Sequence record: NC_005833.1
DNA length: 48,836 nucleotides
Direction: 5' to 3' (one strand)
DNA from: Escherichia phage T1
In this document: positions 4,036-48,751 of the stretch, piece by piece
How positions within the stretch are numbered: position 1 is the first letter of the stretch
How the letters are laid out: every line of letters starts with the position of its first letter
The notes under the pieces: model-generated
The model's input: the letters and a program-made list of their open reading frames with translations, nothing else
Told to the model about the DNA's origin: nothing
The model's database searches: none
Position numbers and translations under genes: made by a program

Positions 4036-4141
4036 GAGAAAACACTATGCCAGACTTTTCTAACTGGAATAACGAGCCGCCATCATTTCAGGAGTTGCTA
4101 TTCTGCCTCCTGGTCCTGACATTATCTCTTAAGGGTGTTTT

Positions 4142-4395: not shown

Positions 4396-4417
4396 ACCAA
4401 CAAACGAGGAAGCGATC

Positions 4418-4864: not shown

Positions 4865-4917
4865 TAGCACGAATTGCTAAAACTTGCTCAAGGGCATTTG
4901 TTAGAATGCCCTTCGTT
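4864..4917 (+). promoter_or_regulatory. conserved box-hairpin element
   Basis: ATAGCACGAATTGCTAAAAC; TTGCTA 4874-4879; 22-nt spacer; TAGAAT 4902-4907; AAGGGCAT / ATGCCCTT arms. Confidence 0.6.
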
Positions 4918-4947
4918 GAGTTAAGCAACCAATCAGAGGAATAAATC

Positions 4948-5959: not shown

Positions 5960-5961
5960 AC

Positions 5962-6534: not shown

Positions 6535-6582
6535 CACGAATTGCTAAAACGTCGGTGTGGTGATTTGATATAGTTACCTCAT
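6531..6582 (+). promoter_or_regulatory. conserved box-hairpin element
   Basis: ATAGCACGAATTGCTAAAAC 6531-6550; 22-nt spacer; TATAGT 6569-6574. Confidence 0.6.
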
Positions 6583-6606
6583 CGACAACGAAGAGAGAAA
6601 ATCGAA

Positions 6607-28000: not shown

Positions 28001-28561
28001 ATTCGGGAGGCTATCGCGAACGAGACTGAGGCTAGAACGCAAGCTGACTTAACACTTAGCGCGCGGCTTGGAAATAACGAGGCGGCACTTGCTCAAAAAC
28101 TAGACTCGTGGAGTAACGCGGATTCTACTGGTGCAATGTACGGTGTCAAGTTGGGTCTGAAATACAACGGCCAGGAATACAGTGCAGGCATGGCTATGTC
28201 TCTAGTTGGTTCCGGAGCTGCGGTTAAGGCGCAGATTTTGTTTGAGGCGTCACGATTTGCCATCATGACTGGAATGAATGGTCAGACTCAGTACCCCTTC
28301 GTTGTTGAGAATGGTCAGGTTATTTTAAGTAGCGCGATTATCAAGAACGGATTCATCACCAACGCAATGATTGGAAACTTCATCCAGTCGAATAACTATG
28401 TATTTAACCAGTCCGGATGGAGGCTTGACAAGGGTGGAACATTCGAAAATTACGGAAGTGACGGTGAGGGTGCAATGAAGCAAACTAATACCACAATATC
28501 TGTTAGGGATGCGAGTGGTCGCCTGAGGGTTCAGATTGGCAGGTTGACTGGCTCATGGTAA
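25043..28561 (+). CDS. tail tip / host specificity protein (lambda J-like central fibre)
   Basis: 1172-aa ORF following M/L/K/I-like genes; contains a 2 x 99 bp perfect in-frame tandem repeat. Confidence 0.8.
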   Translation: MIQKVISGSKGGSQKPHNPVEMEDNLISINKIKILLAVSDGEIDETFSLKQLMFNSVPVQNEDGSFNFEGVKAEFRPGTQTQEYIKGMEDSSSEVTVNREVTTDNPYTISVTNKTLSAIRIKMFMPRGVRIESNGDKNGVRVEYEVQQAVDGGSFETVLTDVIEGKTMSGYDRSRRVNLPNFNNQVIFRVVRKTPDSNDSNVVDAIQVKSYAEVIDAKFRYPLTGLLFVEFDSKMFPNQLPTISIRKRWKIVNVPSNYDPESRTYNGNWDGTFKKAWTNNPAWVLYDLMINQRYGLDQKELGIAVDKWALYEAAQYCDQMVPDGKGGTEPRYLCDVIIQSQTDAYKVIRDICSIFRGMSFWNGESISVIIDRPREPAYIFTNDNVVNGDFSYTFASEKSMYTTCNVMFDDEQNMYQQDVEPVFDREATLRFGNNVTSITAIGCTRRSEANRRGRWILKTNLRSTTVNFATGLEGMIPTIGDVVAIADNFWSSNLTMNLSGRLLEVSGSQIFLPFRVDARAGDFIIVNKPDGKPVKRTISSVSADGKTIEVNIGFGFPVKPNTVFAIDRTDIALQQYVVTKIDKGDDDEEFTYKITAVEYDPNKYDEIDYGVNIDDRPTSIVEPDQIPRPKNVQVSSESRIVQGMSVETMIVSWDKVPYAVFYDVQWRKDNGNWQNVPQTANKEVYVEGIYAGNYQVRVRSVAGSGTTSGWSNIVAATLTGKQGEPGRPINLTATDDVVFGIRTKWGFSDGSGDTAYTELQQSPDGTVDNASLLSLIPYPQHEYYHSPMPGGNIVWYRVRTVDRIGNVSQWTDFVRGMASTNVDDIIGEISVDIENSPGYEWLVDNATDNAAQNSANAEAAIENALANDKDAIYMKKENGKRKAEYTKSLKLIADETQARVTAIEQLKASFGDQISASNSELREVIATETEALSREIDQLKAQIGDDIQASLTDIREVIATETEALSREIDQLKAQIGDDIQASLTDIREAIANETEARTQADLTLSARLGNNEAALAQKLDSWSNADSTGAMYGVKLGLKYNGQEYSAGMAMSLVGSGAAVKAQILFEASRFAIMTGMNGQTQYPFVVENGQVILSSAIIKNGFITNAMIGNFIQSNNYVFNQSGWRLDKGGTFENYGSDGEGAMKQTNTTISVRDASGRLRVQIGRLTGSW
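27811..28008 (+). repeat. perfect in-frame tandem duplication, 2 x 99 bp, inside J-like gene
   Basis: 27811-27909 and 27910-28008 read identically; encodes a 33-aa unit twice, followed by a diverged third unit. Confidence 0.8.
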
Positions 28562-35917: not shown

Positions 35918-35929
35918 TTCCAGATCTCC

Positions 35930-35969
35930 AAAATAAAAAACGCGTAGAAGGATGTTAACCCGCTACGCG
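35930..35969 (-). terminator. rho-independent terminator after HTH gene (reverse strand)
   Basis: CGCGTAG .. CTACGCG inverted repeat; plus-strand A-run 35930-35940 is the reverse-strand T-run. Confidence 0.5.
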
Positions 35970-35978
35970 TCGTTTGTT

Positions 35979-36431
35979 TTAACTAAAAATGCTATTGGTC
36001 GTTCCGATATCTTCCCTCTTCACGACGCGCATAAATTTCTTGTTCTTGCATCGCTTCTCAAGGCACTTGCCGTTACCGTCAAACTTCAGGTCGAATCGCA
36101 ACCATGCGGCCCTAAACCCTTTGCACCCCTGTCGGCGGTAAGCACGATGCGCAGCTTCAGCGCCTTGCCATGAAATCATATTGCGTTCTTTCCAGCCTTG
36201 CACCGTCTGATTGCTAACCTTCAGAGCCTTTGCGCAGGCCGCCGGGCCGCCGTAATATTCGATAAGGGCATCAAGTCGCGCTCGCAGTCCGGCGCGCGTT
36301 TCTTCTTTATGAATATAGAACCCGCAACGCTGGCGAGGCTTTTTATCTTTACCGCGCCGTGTTCCGTTGTTACCATTGATGTGACGTTTATCGATTTCAC
36401 CAGTTGACTCTGCGATACGTTGAATACTCAT
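35979..36431 (-). CDS. HTH DNA-binding protein (possible transcriptional regulator)
   Basis: 150 aa; basic; helix-turn-helix-like AACAKALKVSNQTVQGW segment. Confidence 0.4.
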   Translation of the reverse strand: MSIQRIAESTGEIDKRHINGNNGTRRGKDKKPRQRCGFYIHKEETRAGLRARLDALIEYYGGPAACAKALKVSNQTVQGWKERNMISWQGAEAAHRAYRRQGCKGFRAAWLRFDLKFDGNGKCLEKRCKNKKFMRVVKREDIGTTNSIFS

Positions 36432-36443: not shown

Positions 36444-36500
36444 ATAGCACTTTTTGCTAAAAACGTTTACTTTATGCCGTGTATTATAGCGTAAACGTTA
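36444..36500 (+). promoter_or_regulatory. conserved box-hairpin element upstream of helicase
   Basis: ATAGCACTTTTTGCTAAAAAC; TTGCTA 36454-36459; 22-nt spacer; TATTAT 36482-36487; AACGTTTAC / GTAAACGTT arms. Confidence 0.55.
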
Positions 36501-36524
36501 CAACGATTCAAAGGATTAATAGCC

Positions 36525-38543
36525 GTGACAATGAACATTAAAAAACAGATTGCATTACTTGGCGATGACTATATAAAGAGAACTCAGGAGCGATTTACTG
36601 TTGGTGAGGTTGTTCCTTATCCGTACCAGGTTGTTGCTTATGCCGAGATCGCGAAACGCCTATCAAATTACGAGCATCCATTCTTCGTTAAAGCGTCTGT
36701 ATCCGCAGGTAAGACAATCATCTTCGCTATGGTGGCAAAGCAGTGTCAGAAAATGGGCTTAAAAATGCTTGTCCTGGCTCGTCAGGGTGAGATTGTCGAT
36801 CAGGATAGCGAAGAGATCGACAACTTCGGGGTAACGAACTCCATCTTCTCAGCGTCACTTGGAATCAAGTCCTGCTACTTCCCGATCGTGGTTGGCTCAG
36901 AGGGTACTGTTGCAAATGGCCTCGACAATGAGTTAGCTGATTTCGTCCCGCATGTAATTGGGATCGACGAATGTCACCAGGTGGATTGGGAAGACCTTGC
37001 GCAAGCCATCGAGGGTAAGGAAACAATGGAACAAATGAGGGGCGAGAAAGGGAAAATTATCATGGACGGAGATATTCCCCTGATTGGTAATGATGGAAAG
37101 CCTTTGCTTGGAACTAAGCGCAGTCAGTACACGATCGTAATCATGGAAATGATGCGGCGCTGTAAAAAGGTTCACGGTCACGATCTCAGAATATTTGGTA
37201 TGACTGGATCTGAATTTCGTGGCGTAGTTCCTATTCTGGTAGAGAATCCGAAAGCATTGGGATTCTGGCGTGAGCGAGTAACTGATATCGACACAAACTA
37301 TCTGATTGAGTTCGGCTCTGTCGTTCCGACTATATTCGGATCAACAGACGGAGTTCATTACGATCTTGATAAGTTCAAGGCGTCTAGCGAGGACGGAGTG
37401 CAGGACTTTACAGAGAAAGACATGAAGGCTATGGAAGATGAGATCCTTCATGATAAATCTCTGACTCAGCGAATCATGCAAATGGTCGCCAAAAAGGCAG
37501 AAGAACGCAATGCGGTCCTGATTACATGTGCTGGTGTGCGCCACTGCAAAGAGGCAGCGGCAGCACTTCCTCCGGGAAGCACCTATGCAATTATTACTGG
37601 CGACACAGACAACAAAGCGCGCAAGAAGATTCTTGACGATGTAAGGGCCGGAAAAATTAAATACACCTTTCAGGTAATGGCGCTCACTACTGGCGTTAAC
37701 GTTCCAAATTGGGATTTCAGTGTCATACTCCGCAAGATAGGATCGCTCACTCTGTTGATTCAACTTTTGGGTAGGGGTATGCGACTGCTTAAATCCTGGC
37801 AGGTTGCTGAAGGAATGGTTAAGCAGGACCATCTGGTATGGGATTTTGCAGGTACGATGGATGAGCTGGGTCAGCTTTATTTCGATCCGATACTTGAGCA
37901 GGCGCAATTCCAGAAGCGTTTTGAAAACGGCAAAGATCCGAAAACATGTCCGAAATGCGGTTGCGTAAATAGCTTCTATGCTCGACGATGCGTTAATGTC
38001 ATTGATGGTGAGCGTTGCGATCATTTCTGGACTTCTCAGATTTGTGAGGACCAGGTTGACGAGCGAACCGGGAAAATCCTTGTTAAAGGATGCGGTGCAG
38101 AGAATGACGTTGTTGCGCGAGTCTGTCGTTGTTGTGATGCTTCTCTTGTCGATCCTAACCTGAAGTTATCCGGTAAGGCGTACACCAAGAATGACTGGTA
38201 TGAAGTAAAGAATTTTGAGGTTACGCTAACCAAAAACCAGAAAGGCATAATATACAAATACACTCTGATTAACGACGATGGTGATGAGTTCAAGGCGTAT
38301 GAAAAATTCTTCCCCGAGTCTGACTCTAAGATTTGCGGTACGCTATGGAAAACTAAAGGTGTACTTCCTCATGTGTCAGATCCTAAAATGCGCCGCTACT
38401 TTATCGGAATGAAGAACGCCATCAAGATTTTGCAATACTCACATCATATTGCTCACCCGGTGCGCGTAACTCATCGTCGCAACCAGAAGAAAGAAGATAT
38501 CATCTCACGCAAAGACTTCGGTATGGAGGATATCCCGGAATGA
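36525..38543 (+). CDS. SF2 DNA helicase (DEAH-type) with C-terminal zinc-ribbon
   Basis: Walker A SVSAGKT, motif II IGIDECH; C-terminal CPKCGC..CRCCD cysteine clusters. Confidence 0.8.
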   Translation: MTMNIKKQIALLGDDYIKRTQERFTVGEVVPYPYQVVAYAEIAKRLSNYEHPFFVKASVSAGKTIIFAMVAKQCQKMGLKMLVLARQGEIVDQDSEEIDNFGVTNSIFSASLGIKSCYFPIVVGSEGTVANGLDNELADFVPHVIGIDECHQVDWEDLAQAIEGKETMEQMRGEKGKIIMDGDIPLIGNDGKPLLGTKRSQYTIVIMEMMRRCKKVHGHDLRIFGMTGSEFRGVVPILVENPKALGFWRERVTDIDTNYLIEFGSVVPTIFGSTDGVHYDLDKFKASSEDGVQDFTEKDMKAMEDEILHDKSLTQRIMQMVAKKAEERNAVLITCAGVRHCKEAAAALPPGSTYAIITGDTDNKARKKILDDVRAGKIKYTFQVMALTTGVNVPNWDFSVILRKIGSLTLLIQLLGRGMRLLKSWQVAEGMVKQDHLVWDFAGTMDELGQLYFDPILEQAQFQKRFENGKDPKTCPKCGCVNSFYARRCVNVIDGERCDHFWTSQICEDQVDERTGKILVKGCGAENDVVARVCRCCDASLVDPNLKLSGKAYTKNDWYEVKNFEVTLTKNQKGIIYKYTLINDDGDEFKAYEKFFPESDSKICGTLWKTKGVLPHVSDPKMRRYFIGMKNAIKILQYSHHIAHPVRVTHRRNQKKEDIISRKDFGMEDIPE

Positions 38544-38956
38544 TTACAGACAAAGGTGATTATTTAGAATTTTACGAGAGAGACACAAGCGACACTCGAA
38601 AGGAGGATGCTCATCAGGTGGATTGTGTATCTTGGCTGAAATACAATTTTCCTCACCTTCTATTTTGGCACACTGTCAATGAAGGTGAAAAAACAATCAC
38701 ATCGGCGCTCAGGGATGAGCAGGCAGGATTACTTAAAGGCGTGTCAGACTTCGTTATCCTGATTGGTGTTAACTCACGATACCCGTTTGCAGCAATCGAA
38801 CTTAAGCGGGTTAATAAGTCAGGCAAAGGAAAGGCGTCACCAGTCAGCGACAAGCAAAGGGAATTTCTCCAAAAGGTCCGGGAGCGTGGCGGCTTCTCTG
38901 CCGTCGCATACGGATTCGGGCAATTCAAGATCGCAATTTACGAAATGATGAAATAG
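38540..38956 (+). CDS. VRR-NUC domain nuclease
   Basis: SWL, GVSDFVIL, AAIELKR, SDKQREFL, GGFSAVA motif order typical of VRR-NUC PD-(D/E)XK nucleases; ATGA overlap with helicase. Confidence 0.65.
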   Translation: MITDKGDYLEFYERDTSDTRKEDAHQVDCVSWLKYNFPHLLFWHTVNEGEKTITSALRDEQAGLLKGVSDFVILIGVNSRYPFAAIELKRVNKSGKGKASPVSDKQREFLQKVRERGGFSAVAYGFGQFKIAIYEMMK

Positions 38957-39000
38957 CACTTTTTGTTAAAACTGCCGGGATGGAATCTGGCATTATTATC
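38953..39000 (+). promoter_or_regulatory. conserved box-hairpin element upstream of dam
   Basis: ATAGCACTTTTTGTTAAAAC; TTGTTA 38963-38968; 22-nt spacer; CATTAT 38991-38996. Confidence 0.55.
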
Positions 39001-39023
39001 TCACCAAAACGAGAGGAATAAAA

Positions 39024-39737
39024 ATGAAAGACTTTAATGATATCGAAACTATCGACTTTGCAGAAACTGGTTGCTCATTCACTCGCGAAGCAATAGCATC
39101 AGGCGGTTATTATCAGGCATTGAAAACGCCAACCTGTAAAGAGATTTCAGGGCGTCGATACAAGGGGACAAATACCCCTGACGCTGTTCGTGATTTATGG
39201 TCAACTCCGCGAGAGGTTATTGCATACCTTGAGGGTCGTTATGGGAAATATGATCTCGACGCTGCGGCAAGCGAAGAAAATAAAGTTTGCGAGAAGTTTT
39301 ACTCTCAGGAAACAAACTGCTTAAAACGTTGGTGGGGAAAGAATAAGCACGTTTGGTTAAATCCTCCTTATAGCCGACCTGATATATTTGTCAAGAAGGC
39401 CATTGAGCAAATGGAGCACAACAATCAGATCGATATGCTTTTACCTGCAGATAACTCTACTGCGTGGTTTACTGAAGCGCGGCAGAACGCAGCTGAAATA
39501 ATCTGGATTGAAGCGGACTTGACTGAGGATATTGACGGCAATGAATACGCACGATCCGGTCGCCTGGCTTTCATATCCGGTGAAACTGGAAAGGCCGTAG
39601 ACGGTAATAACAAAGGTTCGGTAATTTTTATTATGCGCGAACTTAAAGAAGGTGAGGTGCAACAGACTCACTACATCCCAATCACAAGCATTTGCCCTTC
39701 GGTGAAAAACAAACGAGCAAAGGTGAGGAAAGTATGA
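39024..39737 (+). CDS. dam: DNA N6-adenine methyltransferase (Dam-type)
   Basis: NPPY catalytic motif (WLNPPYS); size and context typical of phage Dam. Confidence 0.75.
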   Translation: MKDFNDIETIDFAETGCSFTREAIASGGYYQALKTPTCKEISGRRYKGTNTPDAVRDLWSTPREVIAYLEGRYGKYDLDAAASEENKVCEKFYSQETNCLKRWWGKNKHVWLNPPYSRPDIFVKKAIEQMEHNNQIDMLLPADNSTAWFTEARQNAAEIIWIEADLTEDIDGNEYARSGRLAFISGETGKAVDGNNKGSVIFIMRELKEGEVQQTHYIPITSICPSVKNKRAKVRKV

Positions 39738-39985
39738 TGAGCGAAAAAATGGTTCCTGTTAAATTAACTGAGCAAGGTTTATGGCTACTTTATCGAGCTA
39801 CGTGCTGCGAAATTATGGAGCGAAACGGATTGACTCAGGATGTTATTGGTTGCGATCTGTGGGAGTTCACTAGTTCTCTTGATATGTCTTTCGATGAGAT
39901 AAAAAATGAATACATAGAGAACTGGCCTTCAATCATACAGAAAGACGTGGAAGAACTTAAAGCTGATACAATCGTACAGCACTAA
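39734..39985 (+). CDS. hypothetical protein (83 aa)
   Basis: Track ORF 39692..39985; start refined to ATG 39734 (ATGA overlap with dam). Confidence 0.4.
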   Translation: MMSEKMVPVKLTEQGLWLLYRATCCEIMERNGLTQDVIGCDLWEFTSSLDMSFDEIKNEYIENWPSIIQKDVEELKADTIVQH

Positions 39986-40030
39986 TTGCTAAAACTACCC
40001 GGCGAAAGTCGGGTATAGTTATTTCATAGA
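39975..40030 (+). promoter_or_regulatory. conserved box-hairpin element (variant ACAGCAC)
   Basis: TTGCTA 39986-39991; 22-nt spacer; TATAGT 40014-40019; CCCGGCGAAAGTCGGG inverted repeat. Confidence 0.55.
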
Positions 40031-40051
40031 AACGAAATGAGGAATCAGAAG

Positions 40052-40261
40052 ATGGCACGCATTAACGCAAACTTTTTCAATATCGCTCAGCAGTCCGCAA
40101 AAATGGCTGTTCATATTACGAACAAGCAAGGCGGCAACTTCGATTGGGATATTGCTATGAACTTCCTTAAAATGTCTTATTACCGTTGCTCAGTTGAAGA
40201 AGTCGAAGGCTTCATCTCTGACGTGGAGAAATTAACTAATGCTGATAAAAAAGCAAGGTAA
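40052..40261 (+). CDS. hypothetical protein (about 69 aa)
   Basis: Track ORF 40037..40261; start refined to ATG 40052 after GAGGAA; preceded by box-hairpin element. Confidence 0.4.
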   Translation: MARINANFFNIAQQSAKMAVHITNKQGGNFDWDIAMNFLKMSYYRCSVEEVEGFISDVEKLTNADKKAR

Positions 40262-40511
40262 GCGCGAAGTGTGGGAGCACGCAAAGGAATGCGGCATCTC
40301 AGACGATATAGCATTAATTGCTAAATACTTTGATATAAAGGATGTTAGCATTATATCAAACGGCAAGATTTCATTTATGGAAGGTATGCCGAGAAAAATG
40401 CAAAGAGTTCCAGCCACTCCATCACTTGAGTTTTACCGCGAAGAGGGAAAGAGAATTGAGCGAGAAAGAAAATCCACAAAAAACGGCAAGTCTTCCCGGC
40501 TTAAATATTAA
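40239..40511 (+). CDS. hypothetical protein (90 aa)
   Basis: Track ORF; overlaps next ORF in another frame. Confidence 0.3.
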   Translation: MLIKKQGKREVWEHAKECGISDDIALIAKYFDIKDVSIISNGKISFMEGMPRKMQRVPATPSLEFYREEGKRIERERKSTKNGKSSRLKY

Positions 40512-40743
40512 TGCGGACGAATACCAGGCAATATGGATCGGGAAAAAGCAGGTTAAGCAAATCCCTTTCTCTGACTGGTTGCCACCTGACTTTGTTAATG
40601 TGCTTTGCACTATCGGTATTGAGCAGGAGTTGCATATAGGTTACTACTCACCTGGCCGAAACAGTATGATGCTTGAGGTTGACGGAAAGCTCGTTGAGTT
40701 TAAATCTTCAGATCTAGGATTCTGGTTAAAGGCTGTGGCATGA
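40342..40743 (+). CDS. hypothetical protein; start uncertain (possible TTG at 40456 after AAGAGGGA)
   Basis: Track ORF overlapping 40239..40511 by about 170 nt; no in-frame ATG near end of upstream ORF. Confidence 0.3.
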   Translation: MLALYQTARFHLWKVCREKCKEFQPLHHLSFTAKRERELSEKENPQKTASLPGLNINADEYQAIWIGKKQVKQIPFSDWLPPDFVNVLCTIGIEQELHIGYYSPGRNSMMLEVDGKLVEFKSSDLGFWLKAVA

Positions 40744-40821
40744 AACTTTATTTTGCTGTAGTATTAACACCGCTAATTTCATTTTCAGTAATGTATTTCA
40801 TTATCATGTAAGGATTAAAAT

Positions 40822-41955
40822 ATGTCACAAGCTAAAATCACTACCGAGCAACTTATCGAAGAGCGCATGAGCGGCCTGACACTTCGCGAGATCGCGGAAA
40901 AGTACGGTATGCACATTCGCACTGTCGAGGCGCGTCACGCAAAACTTGCAAAAGAAGGCCACTTCCACGGCAACGAGCATGTTGCTAAGATGGTTCCGGA
41001 AGGCTTCATGGTAAAAGGCACGTCAACCATGATTGACGCGGAAGGTAACGAGAAGATTCGTTGGGTTAAGACATCAGTTGATAATGAGCGCCTTGAGGTT
41101 CTAATGGAAAAAGCGCGTGAAGCATTCTGTTCAGAGTTGCCTAAGGCTATTCCATCTGAATCACCTGACGTTAGTTTTGATGAAGACACGCTTGCGATGT
41201 ATCCAGTTTTTGATTTGCACATTGGTGCTCTTGCTCACAAACATGAGTGCGGCGAAAACTACGACACAGCGACAGCAGAGAAGGTTATGAATGGGTTCTT
41301 TGACTACGCTGTAGATAAGGCGCCAAACTCAAAGAATGCCGTATTGGTATTGGGTGGCGATTTCCTACATTACGACTCTTTGGAGTCTAAGACTCCAGCG
41401 TCAGGCCATTACTTAGATTCTGACAGTCGTTACGCTAAGCTTGTTTATGTCGCAATCCGATCAGTACGACGCGCAGTCTCTCGAATGCTGGAGAAGCACC
41501 AAGTTATTGATATTAAAGCAATAAGTGGGAATCACGACGAATCAGGGATGGTTTGGTTGCGCGCTGCGCTTGCTGCATTTTATGAAGATGAGCCGCGCGT
41601 AAATGTTGATGTTAGCCCTGCCGCAATGATGATGACCAGCTTTGGTAAGACCCTTATTGGATACACTCACGGGCATCAAATGCGAAAAGCAGATACTCGA
41701 CTAAGTGTTATGGCAACTGATTTTCGTAAGTTGTTTGGTCAAAGTGATTACGTTTACACGCATAGCGGTCACTGGCACAGTCAAAAGATTACAGAAACAA
41801 ACTTGGGTATTGATGAGGTTCATGGTCAGCTTGGAAGTCCTGACGCATACTCTGCCAATGGCGGTTGGAGGTCTCAGCGTCAAGCTGCTGTGATTGTCTA
41901 TCACAAGGAATTTGGTGAGGTTGGACGATTCATTTGTCGACCTGAAATGTTCTAA
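40822..41955 (+). CDS. HTH domain fused to calcineurin-like metallophosphoesterase
   Basis: N-terminal HTH-like LTLREIAEKYGMHIRTV; C-terminal GGDFLHYD and ISGNHDE metallophosphatase motifs. Confidence 0.6.
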   Translation: MSQAKITTEQLIEERMSGLTLREIAEKYGMHIRTVEARHAKLAKEGHFHGNEHVAKMVPEGFMVKGTSTMIDAEGNEKIRWVKTSVDNERLEVLMEKAREAFCSELPKAIPSESPDVSFDEDTLAMYPVFDLHIGALAHKHECGENYDTATAEKVMNGFFDYAVDKAPNSKNAVLVLGGDFLHYDSLESKTPASGHYLDSDSRYAKLVYVAIRSVRRAVSRMLEKHQVIDIKAISGNHDESGMVWLRAALAAFYEDEPRVNVDVSPAAMMMTSFGKTLIGYTHGHQMRKADTRLSVMATDFRKLFGQSDYVYTHSGHWHSQKITETNLGIDEVHGQLGSPDAYSANGGWRSQRQAAVIVYHKEFGEVGRFICRPEMF

Positions 41956-42010
41956 ATAGCACCTTTTGTTAAAACAGTACCCGCGAAAGCGGGTATTATT
42001 GTTTTATAGA
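41956..42010 (+). promoter_or_regulatory. conserved box-hairpin element upstream of HNH gene
   Basis: ATAGCACCTTTTGTTAAAAC; TTGTTA 41966-41971; 22-nt spacer; TATTAT 41994-41999; CCCGCGAAAGCGGG inverted repeat. Confidence 0.55.
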
Positions 42011-42027
42011 AACAAGAGGAGATTGCA

Positions 42028-42510
42028 ATGAACTGGCACGAGCATTACGAATATAGGGATGGTGTTCTATATCACAAGGTAAAGCCATGCAGAAGGCATG
42101 ATGTAAATATTGGGGATGTTGCTGGAAGGGTTGCCAAAAACGGCTATCACTATGTTGTTCACAAGAACAGGCCGTATAAGAGATCTCGAGTTATATGGGA
42201 GATGTTTAATGGTGAGATACCAGATGGTTTTGTTATAGATCATCTGAATCACAATGCCACCGATGATAGGATCGATAACCTTGAGTGTAAGCCAAGAAGA
42301 GAGAATATGGTTAATGTTAAGTTAAGGATTGATAGCACGACCGGAGTAACTGGCGTATCAAGAAAGAGGGATAACAAGTGGAGGGCGTACATAACAATTA
42401 TGGGTAAGCAGAAGTGCAAGAGCTTTGACACGTTTGAGGAAGCTTGCGCGCAGAGGATTGAATGGTCAGTAACTCATGATTTTCACCCAAATCACGGTGG
42501 AACATACTAA
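42028..42510 (+). CDS. HNH homing endonuclease with AP2-like domain
   Basis: GEIPDGFVIDHLNHNATDDRIDNL HNH core, TGVTGVS..KWRAYI AP2-like segment; AGA/AGG/ATA-rich codons. Confidence 0.75.
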   Translation: MNWHEHYEYRDGVLYHKVKPCRRHDVNIGDVAGRVAKNGYHYVVHKNRPYKRSRVIWEMFNGEIPDGFVIDHLNHNATDDRIDNLECKPRRENMVNVKLRIDSTTGVTGVSRKRDNKWRAYITIMGKQKCKSFDTFEEACAQRIEWSVTHDFHPNHGGTY

Positions 42511-42560
42511 TAGCACCTTTTACCTAACCCGCGCCACAGAAGTGCGGCATAGTAACCACA
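42510..42560 (+). promoter_or_regulatory. diverged box-hairpin element
   Basis: ATAGCACCTTTTACCTAA; 22-nt spacer; CATAGT 42548-42553; CGCGCCACAGAAGTGCGGC region. Confidence 0.45.
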
Positions 42561-42582
42561 TCGAAAACAGAGATGCTATATC

Positions 42583-42759
42583 ATGAAGATAGTCAAGTGC
42601 ATCCGAAATGACTCCAAAACACTTCCATTCCGTGTAAATCAGATCTATAGTGTTGGTTATGATTTCGGTGGGGGATTATTTGAGATTTACGACGGGCGAG
42701 GTTCAGCAATCCAGACTCCTCTGAACGGTCACTACCTGGAATTTATTGAGATAGATTAA
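42583..42759 (+). CDS. small hypothetical protein (58 aa)
   Basis: Manual translation downstream of box element 42510-42560; weak RBS. Confidence 0.3.
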   Translation: MKIVKCIRNDSKTLPFRVNQIYSVGYDFGGGLFEIYDGRGSAIQTPLNGHYLEFIEID

Positions 42760-42877
42760 CAATAGCATTCATCACCTTACAGGCTGGCATGATTTACATG
42801 CTGGCCTTTTTGCGTTGTGTCAAATAAATTTGAAGGTTAAAATCGACTCACTTGTTCAAAAAATATATGGTGAGATT

Positions 42878-43093
42878 ATGAAAGAGTTTTTAACGGCTGC
42901 TACGTCAAGCACTGGCGGTGCTTCGTTGGTAGGGGCGGCGACAGGGCAACTTTATATTGCTGGCGCTACATTCATTTGCTTTCTGCTTTTTGGTGCCTGG
43001 GGAGCGTACTGGAAGTATCGTGATAGCAAGGCAATTCAGGAAGCGTTAAACGATGGCGATCTAAATAAGGCGCTTAAGATCAGGGGGAGATAA
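42878..43093 (+). CDS. holin (pinholin-like, two TMDs)
   Basis: Track ORF 42815..43093; start refined to ATG 42878; Gly/Ala/Ser/Thr-rich TMD1 then TMD2 [21 protein letters not shown]; immediately upstream of endolysin. Confidence 0.6.
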
Positions 43094-43581
43094 TGAGTTT
43101 AAAAAATAACGTTATAGGCGCATCAATCGGGGCCGCTTTGACGTTGACACCTACCCTACTGGAACGGATCGAAGGTATAGAATACGAGGTTTATTACGAT
43201 ATCGCCGGAGTCCCTACCGTATGCAGCGGAATAACCGGGCCTGACGTCATACCTGGTAAGAAATACACTAAGCGAGAATGCGATGCATTGCTGATAAAAC
43301 ATATCGGCGTCGCTCAGCGATACGTTGACAAGAAGGTTAAGGTTGACATTCCGGTAACTATGCGCGCATCACTGTATAGCTTCACTTTCAACGTTGGGAC
43401 TGGCGCTTTCGGATCGTCTACAATGCTTAAGCTAATCAATCAGCGCAAGCACAAAGAAGCGTGTAATCAGTTATGGCGATGGGTATACTACTACAACCCA
43501 AAAACCAAAAAGCGCGAAGTGTCGAGAGGGATCAAGAATCGGCGCGCTGAAGAATACGCATATTGCGTTAAGGAACTATAA
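43093..43581 (+). CDS. endolysin, GH24-type lysozyme with N-terminal SAR-like signal-anchor
   Basis: E-D-T catalytic pattern ..[26 protein letters not shown]..; N-terminal weakly hydrophobic [19 protein letters not shown]. Confidence 0.8.
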
Positions 43582-43982
43582 TGAAACTTAAGAAAACGTG
43601 CATTGCAATTACGGTTGCTGTTGGTGTGATTTCTCTATCCGGTTGTTCGACGGCATCTGCTCTGAGTGGTTTACTTTCTGACTCCCCGGATGTTACGGCG
43701 CAGGTTGGCGCTGAGAACACAAAACAACTAGCAGGAGTAACAGCAAAGGCGGATGATAAGCGAGAAGTGAAGGTGAGTGATTCAAATATTGGCAAGATTG
43801 ACTCATCCGTCAAGAAGTCCGTGGAGGTGTCAACCATTCAGGCCAACACGGTTAACGCTGAAAGCATCACAGTAACCAAATCTGGAAGCTGGTACGATCC
43901 TGTGGTTTGCTGGATTCTCGTTTTTATTGTCCTGTTGCTGTTTTATTTTTTAATTCGTAAGCACGAAAAAAAGGAGGCGTAA
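43581..43982 (+). CDS. unimolecular spanin (u-spanin)
   Basis: N-terminal lipoprotein signal with lipobox LSGC plus C-terminal TM helix CWILVFIVLLLFYFLI; last gene of lysis cassette. Confidence 0.7.
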   Translation: MKLKKTCIAITVAVGVISLSGCSTASALSGLLSDSPDVTAQVGAENTKQLAGVTAKADDKREVKVSDSNIGKIDSSVKKSVEVSTIQANTVNAESITVTKSGSWYDPVVCWILVFIVLLLFYFLIRKHEKKEA

Positions 43983-43998
43983 GCCTCCTTTCTTATTT
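43965..43998. terminator. bidirectional terminator between lysis cassette and convergent leftward operon
   Basis: A7 then AGGAGGC gtaa GCCTCCT then T-rich. Confidence 0.65.
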
Positions 43999-44104
43999 GT
44001 ACCTTTTGACGTGAAGTAGCAACTCCCCATCCTGATCGCAAAGATTGTGCTCACCGTCGTTATTGGCCCTCATCGAAGTGAGCAGTAGGCTAAGTAATCC
44101 TTGC

Positions 44105-44512
44105 TCAAATTCTTCTTTCGTAAGCTGGAGCCTTGCGCACAATTCGACGTTCCGATCTATCAATGTTTCTACGTTCGCCAAACAAGTCTTCATCACTCAT
44201 TTCTCCAATGTGCATCATTTCCCACGTATATCGATTGTTGTAGCCATCAATACACATCAGCTTCATCATTACCGGGCGCTTGATCTTTCCCTTGCACCAG
44301 TAAAATCCACCCTTGCAATCAAGATAACCCTCAGTCACGCAGCGTGCGCAAAACTCCTTAGACAGCGCGCTTGTAAATTCACGGCGAGTCATTCCGGCGG
44401 CCTTAGCAAATCGCTCACTTTCCTTGTGGGCGTATATAAATTTCGCTATGTGCTGTCGAGTGTATTTGTCGTAACCTTCGCAGAACCTGAACAGATCTAA
44501 AAGAAGAAGCAT
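44105..44512 (-). CDS. hypothetical protein (135 aa)
   Basis: Track reverse ORF downstream of P-loop NTPase gene; Cys-rich. Confidence 0.4.
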   Translation of the reverse strand: MLLLLDLFRFCEGYDKYTRQHIAKFIYAHKESERFAKAAGMTRREFTSALSKEFCARCVTEGYLDCKGGFYWCKGKIKRPVMMKLMCIDGYNNRYTWEMMHIGEMSDEDLFGERRNIDRSERRIVRKAPAYERRI

Positions 44513-44516
44513 ATTA

Positions 44517-46085
44517 TTAACCCATCAGTCGAGGATTGATGAAAACAATATCATCAATCCGGCAAGTGTAGTTCATCTCTTCGAGCGTGATCAGCAGGCT
44601 GTCGATTCGCTCAGCTACTTTTTGTTGACCGTTGAACGGCGTAACGTTACGGCACTTTGCAACAATGCTATGAATAGGTGCGCGACCTTTGTTCTTCTTT
44701 GCGATCTCAGTGATAACATCAATCAGCTTACGAGATTCAGCCTCATCACCAGCATACCCGGCGGCGCTGGCAGACGACAGATAGGTTCTGGAAAGCTCAT
44801 TGAAAATCATGATCGCTTCCTGCATTGTTTCAAGGTCAATCTCACGGTTGGAACGGTTCGGTGATTCACCCTCCCAGTTCTTGATTGTGTGAAGAACTGA
44901 AGCAATGCGCAAAGCGTGCTTATCGAACTTGCCGAGATGACCGCGTAGCATTGAGTGAGAGTATTTGCCCCCGGCTGCGAAATCCGGCTCCATAGCCTGG
45001 CGAGCAAGGTTTAATTCACGCATAGCATTACGGCTTACAGAGAGAACAACGTTGTCCTCCTTCATAATGTTGTGCACAAGTCGATAATATTTACTCACCA
45101 ATCCTCGATCGACTTCCTTATACAGTGCATCACCATTTTCATCGCAAAGAATACGAGTGCCTAAAAGAGGTTCCTCGCGAACCAATAGGAAACGCTCAGA
45201 TACACCGATACCGCGCTGGCCTGCGTCCATGATACCCTTGATTGTTTCATCCTGCGCAATGACGCAGATCGAACCGACCGGGCAAAGAGATAAGTTATTG
45301 TCCTGATTTGAACGCGCAACCTCCATATGGTTTTTATCCCACGCCTTGAGGATAAGCTCGCTGTTTGATTTCTTATCAGAACCGCCATAAGTCAGGCCAA
45401 GCAATGTATTTATTGCCGTTGCCTCATCAGAGATTACGGAAAAGTGGCCTTGAACAGCAGCTACTTTCGCAAGACCTTCCGGTGTAGGATCTGATACCGC
45501 GAAAACAATATCAGCCATCTTCTTGATCTTCTCTTCCAGTTTTTCCTTGTCCTCGTACAGCGCCGCCGTCGTGTTACCCTTCGGATCGTTTTTGATTTCC
45601 TTCTCGATCTGACGTAGCTGACTGGTTAAACGGATACGTTCCTTTTTGCGCTCTTCATTCAGTCTCTGAATCTCTGCGCGCATAGGTGTAATCGCCGCTG
45701 AGTTAATCGCGGATTTACCTGTTGATGGTGGCTGGCTAATCACCATATAAAGAGCGGTCGGTTGTTCTTCTCCGTGATATTGCACCCAAAACTTCCCTAG
45801 CATCGCGGCTGAGATGCACCCAATGAAATGAGCGTACGCAGACGAAACAGGAAACTGTACAGACTCAGCTTTTGCTTTTGCATATTCGAATACCAGGTTA
45901 TCGCCACCTAACGAAATCAGCGGGAACTTATCGTTTCCACTGTTGATATCGATCGGGTCTTGCCAAAACGAAACTGAATCCCCGTAGCTGTTTTCACGAA
46001 TTGCGATCGCCACCGGATTAACTCCAGTGCTATTTGCGATCTCAATAATCTGTTGGTAATTCAGTTTTGGCTTAATATTAAACAT
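44517..46085 (-). CDS. P-loop NTPase (possible replication-associated ATPase)
   Basis: Track ORF 44517..46148; start refined to Met 46085 (ATG sharing one base with HNH stop); Walker A-like QPPSTGKS. Confidence 0.55.
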   Translation of the reverse strand: MFNIKPKLNYQQIIEIANSTGVNPVAIAIRENSYGDSVSFWQDPIDINSGNDKFPLISLGGDNLVFEYAKAKAESVQFPVSSAYAHFIGCISAAMLGKFWVQYHGEEQPTALYMVISQPPSTGKSAINSAAITPMRAEIQRLNEERKKERIRLTSQLRQIEKEIKNDPKGNTTAALYEDKEKLEEKIKKMADIVFAVSDPTPEGLAKVAAVQGHFSVISDEATAINTLLGLTYGGSDKKSNSELILKAWDKNHMEVARSNQDNNLSLCPVGSICVIAQDETIKGIMDAGQRGIGVSERFLLVREEPLLGTRILCDENGDALYKEVDRGLVSKYYRLVHNIMKEDNVVLSVSRNAMRELNLARQAMEPDFAAGGKYSHSMLRGHLGKFDKHALRIASVLHTIKNWEGESPNRSNREIDLETMQEAIMIFNELSRTYLSSASAAGYAGDEAESRKLIDVITEIAKKNKGRAPIHSIVAKCRNVTPFNGQQKVAERIDSLLITLEEMNYTCRIDDIVFINPRLMG

Positions 46086-46624
46086 CACAATAAACTCCTT
46101 AGTTGACGGCGTGAATGATACACCGTCAATGGTACACGCGTTTTGCAAAAAGTGCTATTCGATCCGTGATTCTCATGAAAACCGTATAGCCTTTCCGCTT
46201 CCTTCCTTGCTTTAGCCGCTGCATCCAGCGTCATGAAGGTCCCTAAGTGTTTTGTCTTTTTATTTATGGTTATGTTTGCCGTGTATCTATTTGTTTTTTT
46301 ATTCCAATACACTCCCATAACTCCTGTGTTTGATGACACTACTCCCTTGTTTCTTAGGTTGTCTTGCCTAGTTACTAGCCTGAGATTCTCAATTCTGTTA
46401 TCGTCTCTTTCATGGTTTATGTGGTCTACATCCATTCCTTCTGGTATGTTTCCGTAGTGTATTTTCCATACTATTCGATGGGCGTATTCAAATACACCTC
46501 CTGGAAAACATATTGACCGATAACCTTTTTTATTAACAGTTCCGGCAAGTAGATTTCGTCTTCTTCCGATTCTCCACTCTTTCCAGTACAGTCTCCCGCT
46601 AACGTATTTCAGTTCATCTTTCAT
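46085..46624 (-). CDS. HNH homing endonuclease with AP2-like domain
   Basis: GNIPEGMDVDHINHERDDNRIENL core; AGA/ATA-rich codons; last 25 codons read through a box-hairpin element. Confidence 0.75.
   Translation of the reverse strand: MKDELKYVSGRLYWKEWRIGRRRNLLAGTVNKKGYRSICFPGGVFEYAHRIVWKIHYGNIPEGMDVDHINHERDDNRIENLRLVTRQDNLRNKGVVSSNTGVMGVYWNKKTNRYTANITINKKTKHLGTFMTLDAAAKARKEAERLYGFHENHGSNSTFCKTRVPLTVYHSRRQLRSLL
46100..46160 (-). promoter_or_regulatory. conserved box-hairpin element, reverse strand, inside 3' end of HNH ORF
   Basis: Reverse complement reads ATAGCACTTTTTGCAAAA, 22 nt, TATCAT, then RBS and ATG of P-loop NTPase gene. Confidence 0.55.
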
Positions 46625-47037
46625 AAGTATTTACTCTCAAAGGTTGTGCCGTCTGCGATACTAAAACCAACCTCTTCGCGGAATAAGGTCCAGCGGCAAC
46701 CGTCCTCATCAAAGATGTAACCAGCTACGCCTCCAAGAGCGCGACCGCTTTCTACCTGGTAACGCTTTCCAACCTTGAATGATTTTTTCATTGGGTTGCG
46801 ATGGTCAAGTCCGGTGCACTTGAGCGTCTTTGTTTTCAACTCGGTGAACTTCGCGAAGAAGATTTCATCAGATCCGTGAATATGTAATTCATCATGCTTT
46901 TCAAGTTTTAAATACTTCCCGCATTTTAACTTTACTTCACGAGTATCATCATAGCGCTCACGACCTTTGTACAGATTGTTTACTTCGAATCCTGTGATTT
47001 TGTCTGCGGAAGTGCATTTAAGTTTGATTGATTTCAT
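46621..47037 (-). CDS. hypothetical protein (138 aa)
   Basis: Track reverse ORF downstream of reverse-oriented box element. Confidence 0.45.
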   Translation of the reverse strand: MKSIKLKCTSADKITGFEVNNLYKGRERYDDTREVKLKCGKYLKLEKHDELHIHGSDEIFFAKFTELKTKTLKCTGLDHRNPMKKSFKVGKRYQVESGRALGGVAGYIFDEDGCRWTLFREEVGFSIADGTTFESKYL

Positions 47038-47059
47038 TGTGTTCGCTCCTGATTGGTTA

Positions 47060-47117
47060 TCTTGAATAAGGCCACTTTATCAAATGACCTTACGGCAATA
47101 TTAACAAATCGTGCTAT
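47060..47117 (-). promoter_or_regulatory. conserved box-hairpin element, reverse strand
   Basis: Reverse complement reads ATAGCACGATTTGTTAA, 22 nt, TAAAGT, with AAGGTCA / TGGCCTT arms. Confidence 0.55.
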
Positions 47118-47327
47118 TTACCAGGGAATATAATCGTCAACGTCCTCATTAATATCATCACCGGGTAACTCAAAGTTAGGATCGTATTCGCTTTCAGCAT
47201 CCATATCCATATCACCAAGAGCCTCGTCAAGTGTGATTTCTTTATATGCTACCTTGATGCACCATTCGGAACTAAGTCCGGCATCAAGCGCTGCAAAATA
47301 ACGAGTCCAGAAATTATCTTGTTCCAT
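47118..47327 (-). CDS. small acidic protein with SSB C-terminal-tail-like tip (..DVDDYIPW)
   Basis: 69 aa, highly acidic C-terminal half; last residues resemble this phage's SSB tail ..FDDDIPF. Confidence 0.5.
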   Translation of the reverse strand: MEQDNFWTRYFAALDAGLSSEWCIKVAYKEITLDEALGDMDMDAESEYDPNFELPGDDINEDVDDYIPW

Positions 47328-47330
47328 TAA

Positions 47331-47555
47331 TTAGCCCCACGAATTAATGTAAATCGAGTTAGCCTCAAGCGTTGCACGAACATCCGCATCTGTTGCATTT
47401 ATCAGTCGAGAGCCTGGCACGCTTCCGATAACACTATTTCCGTTACGCGTCTTAGTTACCGTCATTGAAATAAAGCCTGAAGACTTATCCATCTTGATAA
47501 ATACACGGCCTTTTGCGTTCAGGTGCTTGATGATATTCTCAACTTTAATGCTCAT
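47331..47555 (-). CDS. hypothetical protein (74 aa)
   Basis: Track ORF 47331..47639; start refined to Met 47555 after AAGGAA, so upstream box element stays intergenic. Confidence 0.4.
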   Translation of the reverse strand: MSIKVENIIKHLNAKGRVFIKMDKSSGFISMTVTKTRNGNSVIGSVPGSRLINATDADVRATLEANSIYINSWG

Positions 47556-47574
47556 TTTTGATTCCTTTGTTTTG

Positions 47575-47633
47575 TTTGGTATGGGAGTAATATACCTTAC
47601 TCCCCGATGTGTGTCTTTAGCAATTTGTGCTAT
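47575..47633 (-). promoter_or_regulatory. conserved box-hairpin element, reverse strand
   Basis: Reverse complement reads ATAGCACAAATTGCTAAAG, 22-23 nt, (G)TATAT(T), GGGGAGTA / TACTCCC arms. Confidence 0.55.
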
Positions 47634-47772
47634 CAGCACTCAGAAATTACTTTACACTCTTTGATCGTGCCGCCGAGAACTACCTTTTGCATCATTGCTT
47701 TTTGGCGACTATCGTAAACGCGAACATTTTTTACGCTGTTAAACTTTCCTGTATAGAAAGTGTGAACATAAA

Positions 47773-48093
47773 TCATTTTTTACCGTCCCATGTTTGATAT
47801 GCCGTAACCAGGTTAATGCTATGGTCGAACTCGTCAACGCTAAGCGATCCGATTCTAACAAGCTCTTTGTTGTGCTTAATGTCAACCATCCGGCTATATG
47901 GATGACCTGGCGCGTATTTAAATAGACGCTTGCTGTCGGCAATGTCTGCGTTAATTCCGTAGAATCGGCCTACTGCCGCCTTAACGCGCTCCATGATGTT
48001 TTTTTCGTGGATTGCCGCCGCGTTATTTAGTGCCGCAACCGTACTTCCGTTAATCTTCGGTGACTTCGTTGTGATTTTGTAAGTGTGGTTCAT
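47773..48093 (-). CDS. hypothetical protein (106 aa)
   Basis: Track ORF 47773..48159; start refined to Met 48093 after GGGGGA. Confidence 0.4.
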   Translation of the reverse strand: MNHTYKITTKSPKINGSTVAALNNAAAIHEKNIMERVKAAVGRFYGINADIADSKRLFKYAPGHPYSRMVDIKHNKELVRIGSLSVDEFDHSINLVTAYQTWDGKK

Positions 48094-48109
48094 TATTCCC
48101 CCTAACCAG

Positions 48110-48328
48110 TCAGGATAGCTTTCTAGCTTCATCAATGATAACAGGTTCGAGACGCTCAAGTCGAACGCGGAACGTGTTCATAAATCCCTCGTTATTCTTC
48201 AATAACTCGAAGGCGTCCGTAGCTTCAATGGCGCTACTACCCATGTAAGCGATTACGCGCTTCTGTGTTTTTCGTGAGATCGCCACTACGCGGTAAATAT
48301 TATCACTCATACAATGCCTCCTTAACAC
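48110..48328 (-). CDS. hypothetical protein (72 aa)
   Basis: Track reverse ORF in leftward operon. Confidence 0.4.
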   Translation of the reverse strand: MLRRHCMSDNIYRVVAISRKTQKRVIAYMGSSAIEATDAFELLKNNEGFMNTFRVRLERLEPVIIDEARKLS

Positions 48329-48674
48329 GATCCGCTACGAATGAGTTAACGGTGATTGAATAGTCAGCCACGAAGCAAGGAGCAACACTGCCTGGCTCAG
48401 TGCGCATGAATGGTTTATTGAACTGAGTGATTACCTCGCCAGTATCGTTATCAATTAAGCGAGACGCGCCTAAGCGGTCCACCACGCGCGTTACGCGGTC
48501 CACGCACTCCATTACATCACTTACGTCATAATAGGCGGTTAGAGCGGCTATCATTGCCTTCTCTTGCTTGTTGTGAATCTTACGCGCAATGTTCTCTATC
48601 GCAACGTGCACTTTCTCGTCAGTCTGGATTACCGAGCTGGCTGAGAAGTCCAGATCTGTGAACTGCTTAAACAT
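48303..48674 (-). CDS. hypothetical protein (123 aa), first gene of leftward operon
   Basis: Track reverse ORF; GAGGAAAG RBS; preceded by box element 48690-48751. Confidence 0.45.
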   Translation of the reverse strand: MFKQFTDLDFSASSVIQTDEKVHVAIENIARKIHNKQEKAMIAALTAYYDVSDVMECVDRVTRVVDRLGASRLIDNDTGEVITQFNKPFMRTEPGSVAPCFVADYSITVNSFVADRVKEALYE

Positions 48675-48689
48675 AATACTTTCCTCGTT

Positions 48690-48751
48690 TACTGTTGATG
48701 TGATGAATCATACCCAGTAGACATGGATAAGTCGTTAGCAAAAAATGCTAT
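48690..48751 (-). promoter_or_regulatory. conserved box element, reverse strand, upstream of first leftward gene
   Basis: Reverse complement reads ATAGCATTTTTTGCTAA, 22 nt, GTATGA. Confidence 0.5.

Follow-up and report, generated by a model that had tools for sequence, protein, structure and literature searches.

Repeated elements in the T1 genome

The 48,836-bp window analysed here is the complete genome of coliphage T1, with gene coordinates transferred from the Tunavirus T1 record (99.9% identity over bases 36000-44000). In its right arm, a short repeated element precedes the helicase, dam and HNH genes and the genes at 40052 and 42583 on the plus strand, as well as several genes on the minus strand. 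The element is built around an asymmetric 20-bp box, ATAGCACnnnTTGYTAAAAC, which is followed at a nearly constant distance by a -10 hexamer, and it is almost certainly a promoter. In sequence, orientation and spacing, the box matches the marbox of micF-type promoters of the host, a likeness that suggests that this phage family borrows a host stress activator for turning on its early and middle genes.

Neither the repeat nor the rule that it is oriented with transcription is new. The 2024 re-annotation of phage TLS described a 21-nucleotide (nt) direct repeat, aaATAGCACnnnTTGnTAAAA, at 21 places, oriented with transcription and located ~76 nt upstream of start codons; similar repeats were stated for T1, Rtp and Rogue1, only three conventional sigma-70 promoters were found in TLS, and roles as stoperators, enhancer-binding sites or UP-like elements were proposed (PMC11447400). 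With a copy defined as a site carrying no more than 2-3 mismatches to this consensus, the T1 genome contains ~24 boxes, 17 of which have a start codon 71-84 nt from their first base. The apparent novelty lies in placing the repeat as the upstream half of a class II marbox promoter of the micF type, which also contains a covarying hairpin. Among the papers searched, to which the original description of the T1 genome (Roberts et al. 2004) did not belong, none links the repeat to the marbox and none maps start sites in a T1-like phage.

A preliminary description of the right arm (36444-48751) had placed copies upstream of the five plus-strand genes named above and reverse-complement copies upstream of minus-strand genes, and had argued from their orientation for a promoter-type function. 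All nine of these copies are present (Table 1). Those of the helicase, dam and HNH genes stand exactly as described; that of the 40052 gene begins at 39976 rather than 39975, and that of the 42583 open reading frame (ORF) is a degenerate box with only the GCAC half kept. The spacing of 22-23 nt previously given is that from TTGYTA to the -10, which measures 23 nt at 47633 and 48751 and 22 nt in the other seven copies. One copy within this range, at 40308 inside gene 40239..40511, had been overlooked and is possibly an internal promoter. The orientation rule holds for all 10 copies in this range; extended to the whole genome it is not absolute, since it is followed by 17 of 20 unambiguous copies (binomial p = 0.0013). 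The reversed copies (15086 and 18850, minus strand; 34902, plus strand) are all in late-gene regions beyond the range first described, and five boxes in the genome stand outside the activator position. Orientation tracks transcription because an asymmetric box stands upstream of the -10, and not because of a palindrome. The promoter-type function is borne out by the -10 at a fixed distance, a conserved purine at the presumed start, the leader, the Shine-Dalgarno sequence and start codon that follow, and published green fluorescent protein (GFP) reporters.

Anatomy of the module

Conservation was read from a fixed-register alignment of 29 modules from T1 and the Salmonella phage phSE-2, collected with a search pattern that fixed A-11 and T-7 of the -10 and left their neighbours unconstrained. 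Each module consists of the box, a gap of 18 bp (19 bp in two copies), the -10, a conserved A, a CA-rich leader, a Shine-Dalgarno sequence and the start codon. Several unconstrained box positions are nearly invariant, namely A1 (27/29), T2 (27/29), A3 (29/29), C7 (28/29), T11 (29/29), T15 (28/29) and A19 (26/29), and the 18 bp after the box carry hardly any information. Unconstrained bases around the -10 include G-14 (26/29), T-12 and T-10 (24/29 each) and T-15 (17/29), and the free positions of the TAnnnT hexamer favour TATAAT or TATAGT. TGn-extended -10 sequences are frequent, and about half of the modules lack the TG. In 25 of the 29 modules an A, preceded by a pyrimidine, stands 7 nt past the hexamer and is the likely start point. 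When this predicted start is taken as +1, the box spans -50 to -31 and the hexamer at the -35 position is TAAAAC-like, leaving no usable -35.

The conservation of the box is not that of a palindrome. The invariant C7, T11, A1, A17 and A18 break the dyad symmetry. At position 14, C and T are about equally frequent, whereas its would-be dyad partner, G4, is invariant. This asymmetry fits a monomer with two different helix-turn-helix (HTH) motifs rather than a symmetric dimer. The upstream gene's stop codon has its last base at box positions 0-4 in 10 of 18 modules, being either the TAG of ATAGCAC or a TAA just before it (e.g. 1451-1453, 2270-2272, 3536-3538, 6532-6534 and 38954-38956), so that the modules are packed directly against the upstream gene; this use of the box may explain why positions 2-3 are tighter than the marbox consensus. 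Two modules from opposite arms, 47038..47117 and that starting at 3535, are 82% identical.

A sigma-54 promoter was considered and rejected. TAGCAC-N4-TTGCT differs from TGGCAC-N5-TTGCA by a spacing two bases short and by an A in place of the first G, and the motif lies at about -47/-38, not at -24/-12, with a sigma-70 -10 following.

Similarity to micF-type class II marbox promoters

The marbox has been described as GCAnnWWnTGnnAAA or GCAHWWWWTGYYAAA, and a class II promoter as one in which a forward box overlaps the -35 (Grainger laboratory; PMC12052159). Cryo-electron microscopy studies of micF show a 20-bp robbox/soxbox centred at -41.5, made up of an A site (GCAC) and a B site (CAAA), the latter overlapping the -35; Rob or SoxS bound there occludes sigma region 4 from the -35 and touches sigma and one alpha C-terminal domain. 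Perfect matches to GCAnnWWnTGnnAAA number 20 in T1, compared with 0.83 expected and a maximum of 3 in any of 100 shuffles. When the pattern was extended to the full module (the marbox pattern, exactly 20 nt and YAnnnT), 14 matches were found vs 0.00 expected, none occurring in the 100 shuffles used as a control. The 20-bp marbox consensus is reportedly that of Martin et al. from 1999, AYnGCACnnWnnRYYAAAYn; 21 20-mers of T1 match this consensus, in the form used here, at 13 or more of its 14 specified positions, against 0-3 in shuffles.

The micF promoter of E. coli K-12, read directly from the sequence, is ACAGCACTGAATGTCAAAAC, 18 bp and TAGAAT, and 16 of the 20 bases of the box at 39976 agree with the micF box. 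Class II marbox promoters are highly intolerant of altered spacing. The mar marbox in backward orientation reads ATGCCACGTTTTGCTAAATC and shares 15 of 20 positions with the common T1 form. The sequence features of a class II promoter, i.e. the box sequence, a forward orientation near -41.5 and a weak or absent -35, are all found in the T1 modules, the position being counted from the predicted start site.

By analogy with micF, each element would by itself constitute a sigma-70 promoter of class II, dependent on an activator. A monomer of MarA, SoxS or Rob (RamA in Klebsiella and Salmonella) would bind the box in forward orientation, fill the -35 region, contact sigma region 4 and the alpha C-terminal domain, and recruit RNA polymerase as at micF, while the extended -10 may lend each promoter some activity of its own. 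Because Rob is made constitutively, it is the likeliest activator in unstressed cells, and MarA and SoxS would raise activity further during antibiotic or oxidative stress. We estimate the probability that MarA, SoxS or Rob are the readers of the box at roughly 0.6.

It has to be asked whether an activator is needed at all. RNA polymerase alone could use strong extended -10 promoters, with the box serving as an UP-like or polymerase-contacting element, an idea already raised for UP elements by the authors of the TLS study (PMC11447400). The many modules with G-14 and T-15 have extended -10s that need no -35, and reporter fragments are active without phage proteins (see below). An UP element, however, is an A/T-rich tract at -40 to -60 that the alpha C-terminal domain contacts and that has no base-specific G or C. 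In the T1 box, information is carried by the invariant G4, C5, C7 and G13, and the GCAC and TTG, likewise invariant and base-specific, correspond to the pair of recognition elements in a marbox. Moreover, TTGYTA lies 22 nt from the -10, beyond the reach of sigma region 4, and around half of the modules lack the TG. Transcription by polymerase alone is improbable on this evidence.

Conservation among related phages

Complete modules were counted in phages of four genera: 14 in T1 (Tunavirus; E. coli), 15 in phSE-2 (Tlsvirus; Salmonella), 14 in ABTNL-2 (Webervirus; Klebsiella) and 8 in EC3a (Guelphvirus; E. coli), vs no more than 0.08 expected in each. The Webervirus and Guelphvirus modules were counted by pattern search, and these two genera stood outside the hairpin scoring described below. 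Across genera the box and the -10 are fixed and the spacers are free to vary. A single outgroup, an Aeromonas phage whose TerL is 46% identical and whose replication module is T1-like, gave 3 core matches vs 1.0 expected and no multi-copy box.

Candidate readers of the box

Laganenka et al. found that dam-gfp and orf65-gfp fragments are active promoters in phage-free E. coli (PMC6737242). We mapped the primers of that study to the T1 sequence: the Pdam-gfp fragment (38824-39041) contains the dam module, and the forward primer of Porf65-gfp begins 9 nt before the box at 4344, so the 101-bp fragment 4335-4435 is one bare module. Since the reporters work in phage-free cells, host factors suffice for activity. 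The lysogeny claim of the same paper has been disputed (PMC8262962); the reporter assays are independent of that claim.

The bare orf65 module was independent of the phage regulator Pir in these assays, and Orf65, the product of gene 4418..4864, stimulated this promoter, its own, and repressed Ppir (PMC6737242). The leader of the pir transcript also contains a box, that of the divergent helicase module. A phage factor thus acts on or through these promoters in Tunavirus at least, and raising the bare module while repressing box-carrying Ppir is the dual behaviour expected of a box-binding protein. These data raise the alternative that a phage-encoded activator, Orf65 in Tunavirus or some early protein conserved across the family, reads the box and takes the place of the -35 contact in the manner of MotA/AsiA, the likeness to the marbox being convergence or coincidence; the conservation of box positions 2, 3, 11 and 19, tighter than the host consensus requires, would also agree with this.

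We consider such an activator unlikely. Homologs of Orf65 were found in 66 phage records, essentially of Tunavirus, and in 0 of 446 Klebsiella phage records, yet Webervirus has 14 modules; with this narrow distribution, Orf65 was rejected as a general reader. Orf65 itself gave no family or PDB structural match, and its single-sequence AlphaFold model (predicted local distance difference test score 50) was unusable. An AraC/MarA-type protein was found neither in a Pfam scan of 54 non-structural T1 proteins nor in a permissive rescan of 10 mid-sized proteins of unknown function, and the T1 proteins scanned also yielded no MotA, AsiA or sigma-like domain. The modules already work in uninfected cells, and a chance match to 13-14 marbox positions together with the exact micF spacing and orientation is very unlikely. 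A T4 MotA box was likewise rejected on spacing, on position and because the proteins were not found.

Pir (35979..36431, minus strand) is a Cro-like HTH protein and the one conserved DNA-binding regulator. Across four genera its orthologs share 52-56% identity and their recognition helix varies, while the box is unchanged. Pir was rejected as the reader given this variable helix, the lack of dyad symmetry in box conservation and the Pir-independence of the bare module. A TAGCA-N5-TGCTA operator for a dimeric HTH protein at -42, like that of lambda cI at PRM, was also rejected, as the flanks are asymmetric and the evidence on Pir is contrary. Only TAGCA/TGCTA is symmetric, which is inherent to the marbox, and C7/T11 and A1/A17 break the symmetry. 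The economical explanation is that a factor conserved among E. coli, Salmonella and Klebsiella, of the MarA, SoxS, Rob and RamA kind, reads the box.

The palindrome AAACGTTT occurs twice at 36463-36503 (as AAAACGTTTAC and GTAAACGTTAC), 31 bp apart, bracketing the overlapping -10s of pir and the helicase gene; the two copies are candidate operators for autoregulation by Pir. With the helicase box (36444..36463) in the pir leader and the -10s overlapping, a protein bound to the box should favour the helicase promoter and hinder pir.

Several points weigh against reading by MarA, SoxS or Rob, in addition to the effects of Orf65. MarA and SoxS are scarce in unstressed cells, and Rob is reported to be mostly sequestered and inactive without inducers. 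To our knowledge, classical T1-resistant mutants map to fhuA and tonB and not to rob, mar or sox, so any dependence on these activators is probably partial. Conservation at T2, A3, T11 and A19 exceeds what a marbox needs, for which common descent, the use of the TAG as a stop codon or a reader other than MarA, SoxS and Rob could account. The start points of all copies are predicted, and the hairpin described below, whose role is unproven, has no counterpart in host class II promoters. Our literature search found no gel-shift, footprint or chromatin immunoprecipitation of MarA, SoxS or Rob on these boxes.

Hairpin around the spacer and -10

The modules carry a short GC-rich hairpin whose sequence changes while its pairing is kept. 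Folding of the segment that runs from the box end to slightly beyond the start point gives z < -1.5 for 29 of 34 modules; the mean minimum free energy is -12.1 kcal/mol, compared with -4.8 kcal/mol in shuffles, and the mean z is -3.4. Some hairpins lie wholly in the spacer, several of them with GAAA loops, and others bracket the -10, which then stands in the loop. The spacer hairpins were scored as terminator-like by a generic scan because the T-rich -10 region comes next. Of the two strands, the sense one gives the more stable RNA in 27 of the 34 modules (Wilcoxon p = 0.0002), and shuffles show no such bias. In 11 modules that share one register, 97% of cells pair, compared with 78% in shuffles and 43-52% in slid controls, and compensatory changes are found in five of nine hairpin pairs. 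As these 11 modules were chosen for folding in that register, the compensatory changes are the informative part. No match to Rfam was obtained in the window.

The 5' arm of the hairpin lies upstream of the predicted start, and the hairpin would therefore form only in read-through RNA from the upstream gene. With less confidence than for the promoter itself, we infer that it is a 3' stabiliser or weak terminator of that RNA, insulating neighbouring units. The possibility that TTGYTA is a -35 whose 22-nt spacer is shortened by hairpin extrusion was rejected, because hairpin positions differ between modules and the greater stability of sense RNA argues against a cruciform.

Among individual modules, the helicase -10 lies in the loop of a 9-bp inverted repeat (AACGTTTAC/GTAAACGTT), and the hairpin of module 47038..47117 spans the -10 and contains a G.U pair. 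Module 46086..46158 sits in the 3' end of the HNH gene 46085..46612. In the primase module (35930-35975, minus strand), the -10 occupies the loop of a hairpin with a T-run behind it, an arrangement repeated in phSE-2 at 30656 (~30600-30640), so the intrinsic terminator of pir and the primase promoter are the same sequence.

Table 1. Promoter modules, other promoters and late-region boxes of T1 (+ and -, strand).
Feature	Position	Strand	Details
Helicase module, box ATAGCACTTTTTGCTAAAAA	36444..36463	+	13/14 specified marbox positions; GTG start 36525
Helicase -10 TATTAT	36482..36487	+	overlaps minus-strand pir -10; predicted start ~36494
dam module	38953..39023	+	box 38953-38972; hairpin 38973-38992; ATG 39024
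dam -10 CATTAT with TGn	38991-38996	+	predicted start ~39003
Module of gene 40052..40261	39976..40051	+	box ACAGCACTAATTGCTAAAAC; -10 TATAGT 40014-40019; predicted start ~40026
Hairpin with GAAA loop in 40052 gene's module	39996-40015	+
Extra copy	40308..40351	+	box ATAGCATTAATTGCTAAATA, 18 bp, TG-T-TAGCAT
HNH gene module	41956..42027	+	box 41956-41975; -10 TATTAT 41994-41999; ATG 42028
Hairpin with GAAA loop in HNH module	41976-41997	+
Module of 42583 ORF	42510..42582	+	box ATAGCACCTTTTACCTAACC, without TTG and AAA parts; -10 CATAGT 42548-42553
Module of gene 44517..46085	46086..46158	-	box 46139-46158; -10 TATCAT 46115-46120 in hairpin loop
Module of gene 46621..47037	47038..47117	-	box 47098-47117; -10 TAAAGT with TGn 47074-47079
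Module of gene 47331..47555	47556..47633	-	box 47614-47633; 19-bp gap; -10 TATATT 47589-47594
Module of gene 48303..48674	48675..48751	-	weaker box ATAGCATTTTTTGCTAACGA 48732-48751; 19-bp gap
-10 TATGAT of module 48675..48751	48707-48712	-
Primase module	35918..35995	-	box 35976-35995; -10 TAACAT in hairpin loop; just left of the range first described
Seven left-arm modules	1450..6606	+	box starts 1450, 2269, 2830, 3535, 4344, 4864, 6531; same design
pir promoter TTGAAT-17-TATAAT	36483..36511	-	canonical sigma-70; no box in activator position
Late-type promoters	8320-8363, 18771-18804, 22791-22827, 24970-25006
Late-type promoter	34983-34925	-
Late-region boxes	8362-8381, 25021-25040		after terminator and CTGTAnAAT promoter; overlap leader or ribosome-binding site of small terminase / central tail-fibre gene
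Late-region box	34902-34921	reversed	over predicted start of minus-strand tail-fibre promoter
Late-region box	18831-18850	reversed (-)	with own TG-extended -10: complete antisense module facing late promoter and terminator
Late-region box	15067-15086	reversed (-)	ahead of terminator preceding major capsid gene

Other promoters and boxes in late-gene regions

A generic sigma-70 scan of the right arm gave no excess (37 matches vs 35.5 expected), and one right-arm module passed it. The best sigma-70 matches of the scan are those of pir and of recE (TTGACT-16-TATAAT, 30319-30346), neither of which has a box in the activator position. A different design precedes the small terminase, tail chaperone, minor tail and tail-fibre genes: the hairpin and T-run of an intrinsic terminator and then, only a few bases on, CTGTAnAAT or TGnTAAAAT, without a -35. 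This late-type design is also found in phSE-2, at 4014, 14020 and 20162.

The five boxes outside the activator position are all in late-gene regions, four of them over or just downstream of late-type promoters (Table 1). Three of these arrangements recur in phSE-2 in both position and orientation (20196, 29506 and 10330), and such recurrence indicates that these three are maintained by selection. In EC3a, the late-region boxes are ordinary forward modules; the arrangement is thus not uniform across the family. The antisense module at 18775-18850 (minus strand) consists of a box, 18 bp and TG-A-TAAGAT and runs into the bidirectional terminator 18771-18790; it is predicted to yield an antisense RNA of ~40 nt or to interfere with the overlapping late -10 TAAAAT (18799-18804).

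These boxes bear on the proposal that the repeats are not promoter parts and act instead as repressor roadblocks like the stoperators of mycobacteriophage L5, asymmetric sites at which the repressor of a temperate phage blocks elongation, which were among the roles suggested for TLS (PMC11447400), or as RNA nut or processing signals. Five T1 boxes do stand in blocking positions near late promoters, with three conserved in phSE-2, and the hairpins behave as sense-strand RNA structures. Against this, in the 17 copies with a start codon at the usual distance the -10 also keeps to a constant 18-19 bp, GFP is expressed from a bare module, and the box lies upstream of the predicted start and is hence absent from the module's own transcript. 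No repressor or integrase was detected in T1, and Rfam gave no support for a known RNA signal. We regard this proposal as very improbable for the elements in general; the late-region boxes suggest that the factor binding the box also restrains some late genes.

Additional sequence features

One box (101-120, minus strand) lacks a suitably spaced -10 and adjoins an AT-rich stretch with short tandem and inverted repeats (101-450), including CGATTACGATTACGC and TTAACACGATTAACACG and the arms 143-174 and 386-417. An origin or a packaging function is possible for this stretch. Rob itself was originally identified through its binding to the right arm of oriC.

The tail-fibre gene 32695-34881 (minus strand) is a single ORF of 728 amino acids in the window, whereas two genes, 32696-34312 and 34412-34867, are annotated in MN153797, a record nearly identical to the window with a length difference of 14 bp; a frameshift or indel is probably present in one of the two sequences. 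Within the large tail-fibre gene 25043..28561, a perfect 30-nt direct repeat (27844-27873 and 27943-27972, 99 nt apart) probably encodes a repeated coiled-coil segment. The ribosome-binding context TTTTTTATGGAGAAATCAnnATG recurs at 4020-4049, 14255-14295, 15119-15153, 16123-16163 and 28580-28620, ahead of several highly expressed late genes, and looks like a shared translation-initiation region.

Implications for phage development

We tentatively propose, as a possibility well short of an even chance, a wider scheme in which nearly all early and middle promoters of the enterobacterial Drexlerviridae are wired to MarA, SoxS and Rob (and RamA) through near-consensus class II marboxes, while the same boxes, set over late promoters or just downstream of them, hold late genes back. 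Replication of genomes carrying ~24 boxes each would titrate the factor, an abundant host protein such as Rob, and shift the phage to late expression, and antibiotic or oxidative stress, by inducing MarA and SoxS, would speed or strengthen infection by T1-type phages. T1 is a founding model phage, and if its boxes were true marboxes, a whole family of common lytic phages of E. coli, Shigella, Salmonella and Klebsiella would depend on, or be tuned by, regulators of multidrug resistance, providing a direct molecular link from antibiotic or oxidative stress to phage gene expression. It would bear on phage-antibiotic synergy, on the therapeutic use of Webervirus and Tunavirus phages and on the vigour for which T1 is notorious as a contaminant in laboratories. 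The modules would also provide compact (~75 bp), naturally insulated, activator-responsive promoter parts.

Comparison with known systems

The closest likeness is to micF and other class II marbox promoters. In both, an asymmetric 20-bp box with GCAC and YAAA elements stands in forward orientation 18 bp from the -10, where it overlaps and replaces the -35; the T1 box ends in AAAAC, like that of micF. The differences are that T1 is a lytic phage in which this is the predominant promoter type, with 17 modules in 49 kb, and that its box is near-invariant rather than degenerate, its -10 frequently extended and a covarying hairpin built in.

The middle promoters of T4 have a MotA box centred at about -30, which is read by phage MotA together with AsiA. 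As in T1, an activator-bound upstream box replaces the -35 and the host sigma-70 -10 is kept. Unlike that of T4, the T1 box is centred at about -41 and matches the site of a host factor, and no MotA or AsiA homolog was found among the T1 proteins scanned.

With TLS, a member of a sister genus, T1 shares the repeat consensus, the A, T and G subclasses of the central triplet, the orientation and the distance to the start codon. The TLS paper (PMC11447400) does not describe the fixed -10, the marbox match, the hairpin or the reversed copies in late regions, which come from the analysis of T1.

A further parallel is offered by the Bacillus phages phi29 and Nf, in which Spo0A boxes allow a host regulator to suppress the lytic cycle at a few sites (PMC2731898). 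These phages and T1 are alike in that the promoter regions of a lytic phage carry sites, putative in T1, for a global regulator of the host, coupling phage development to host physiology, and they differ in that the effect predicted in T1 is activation, at most of the early and middle promoters.

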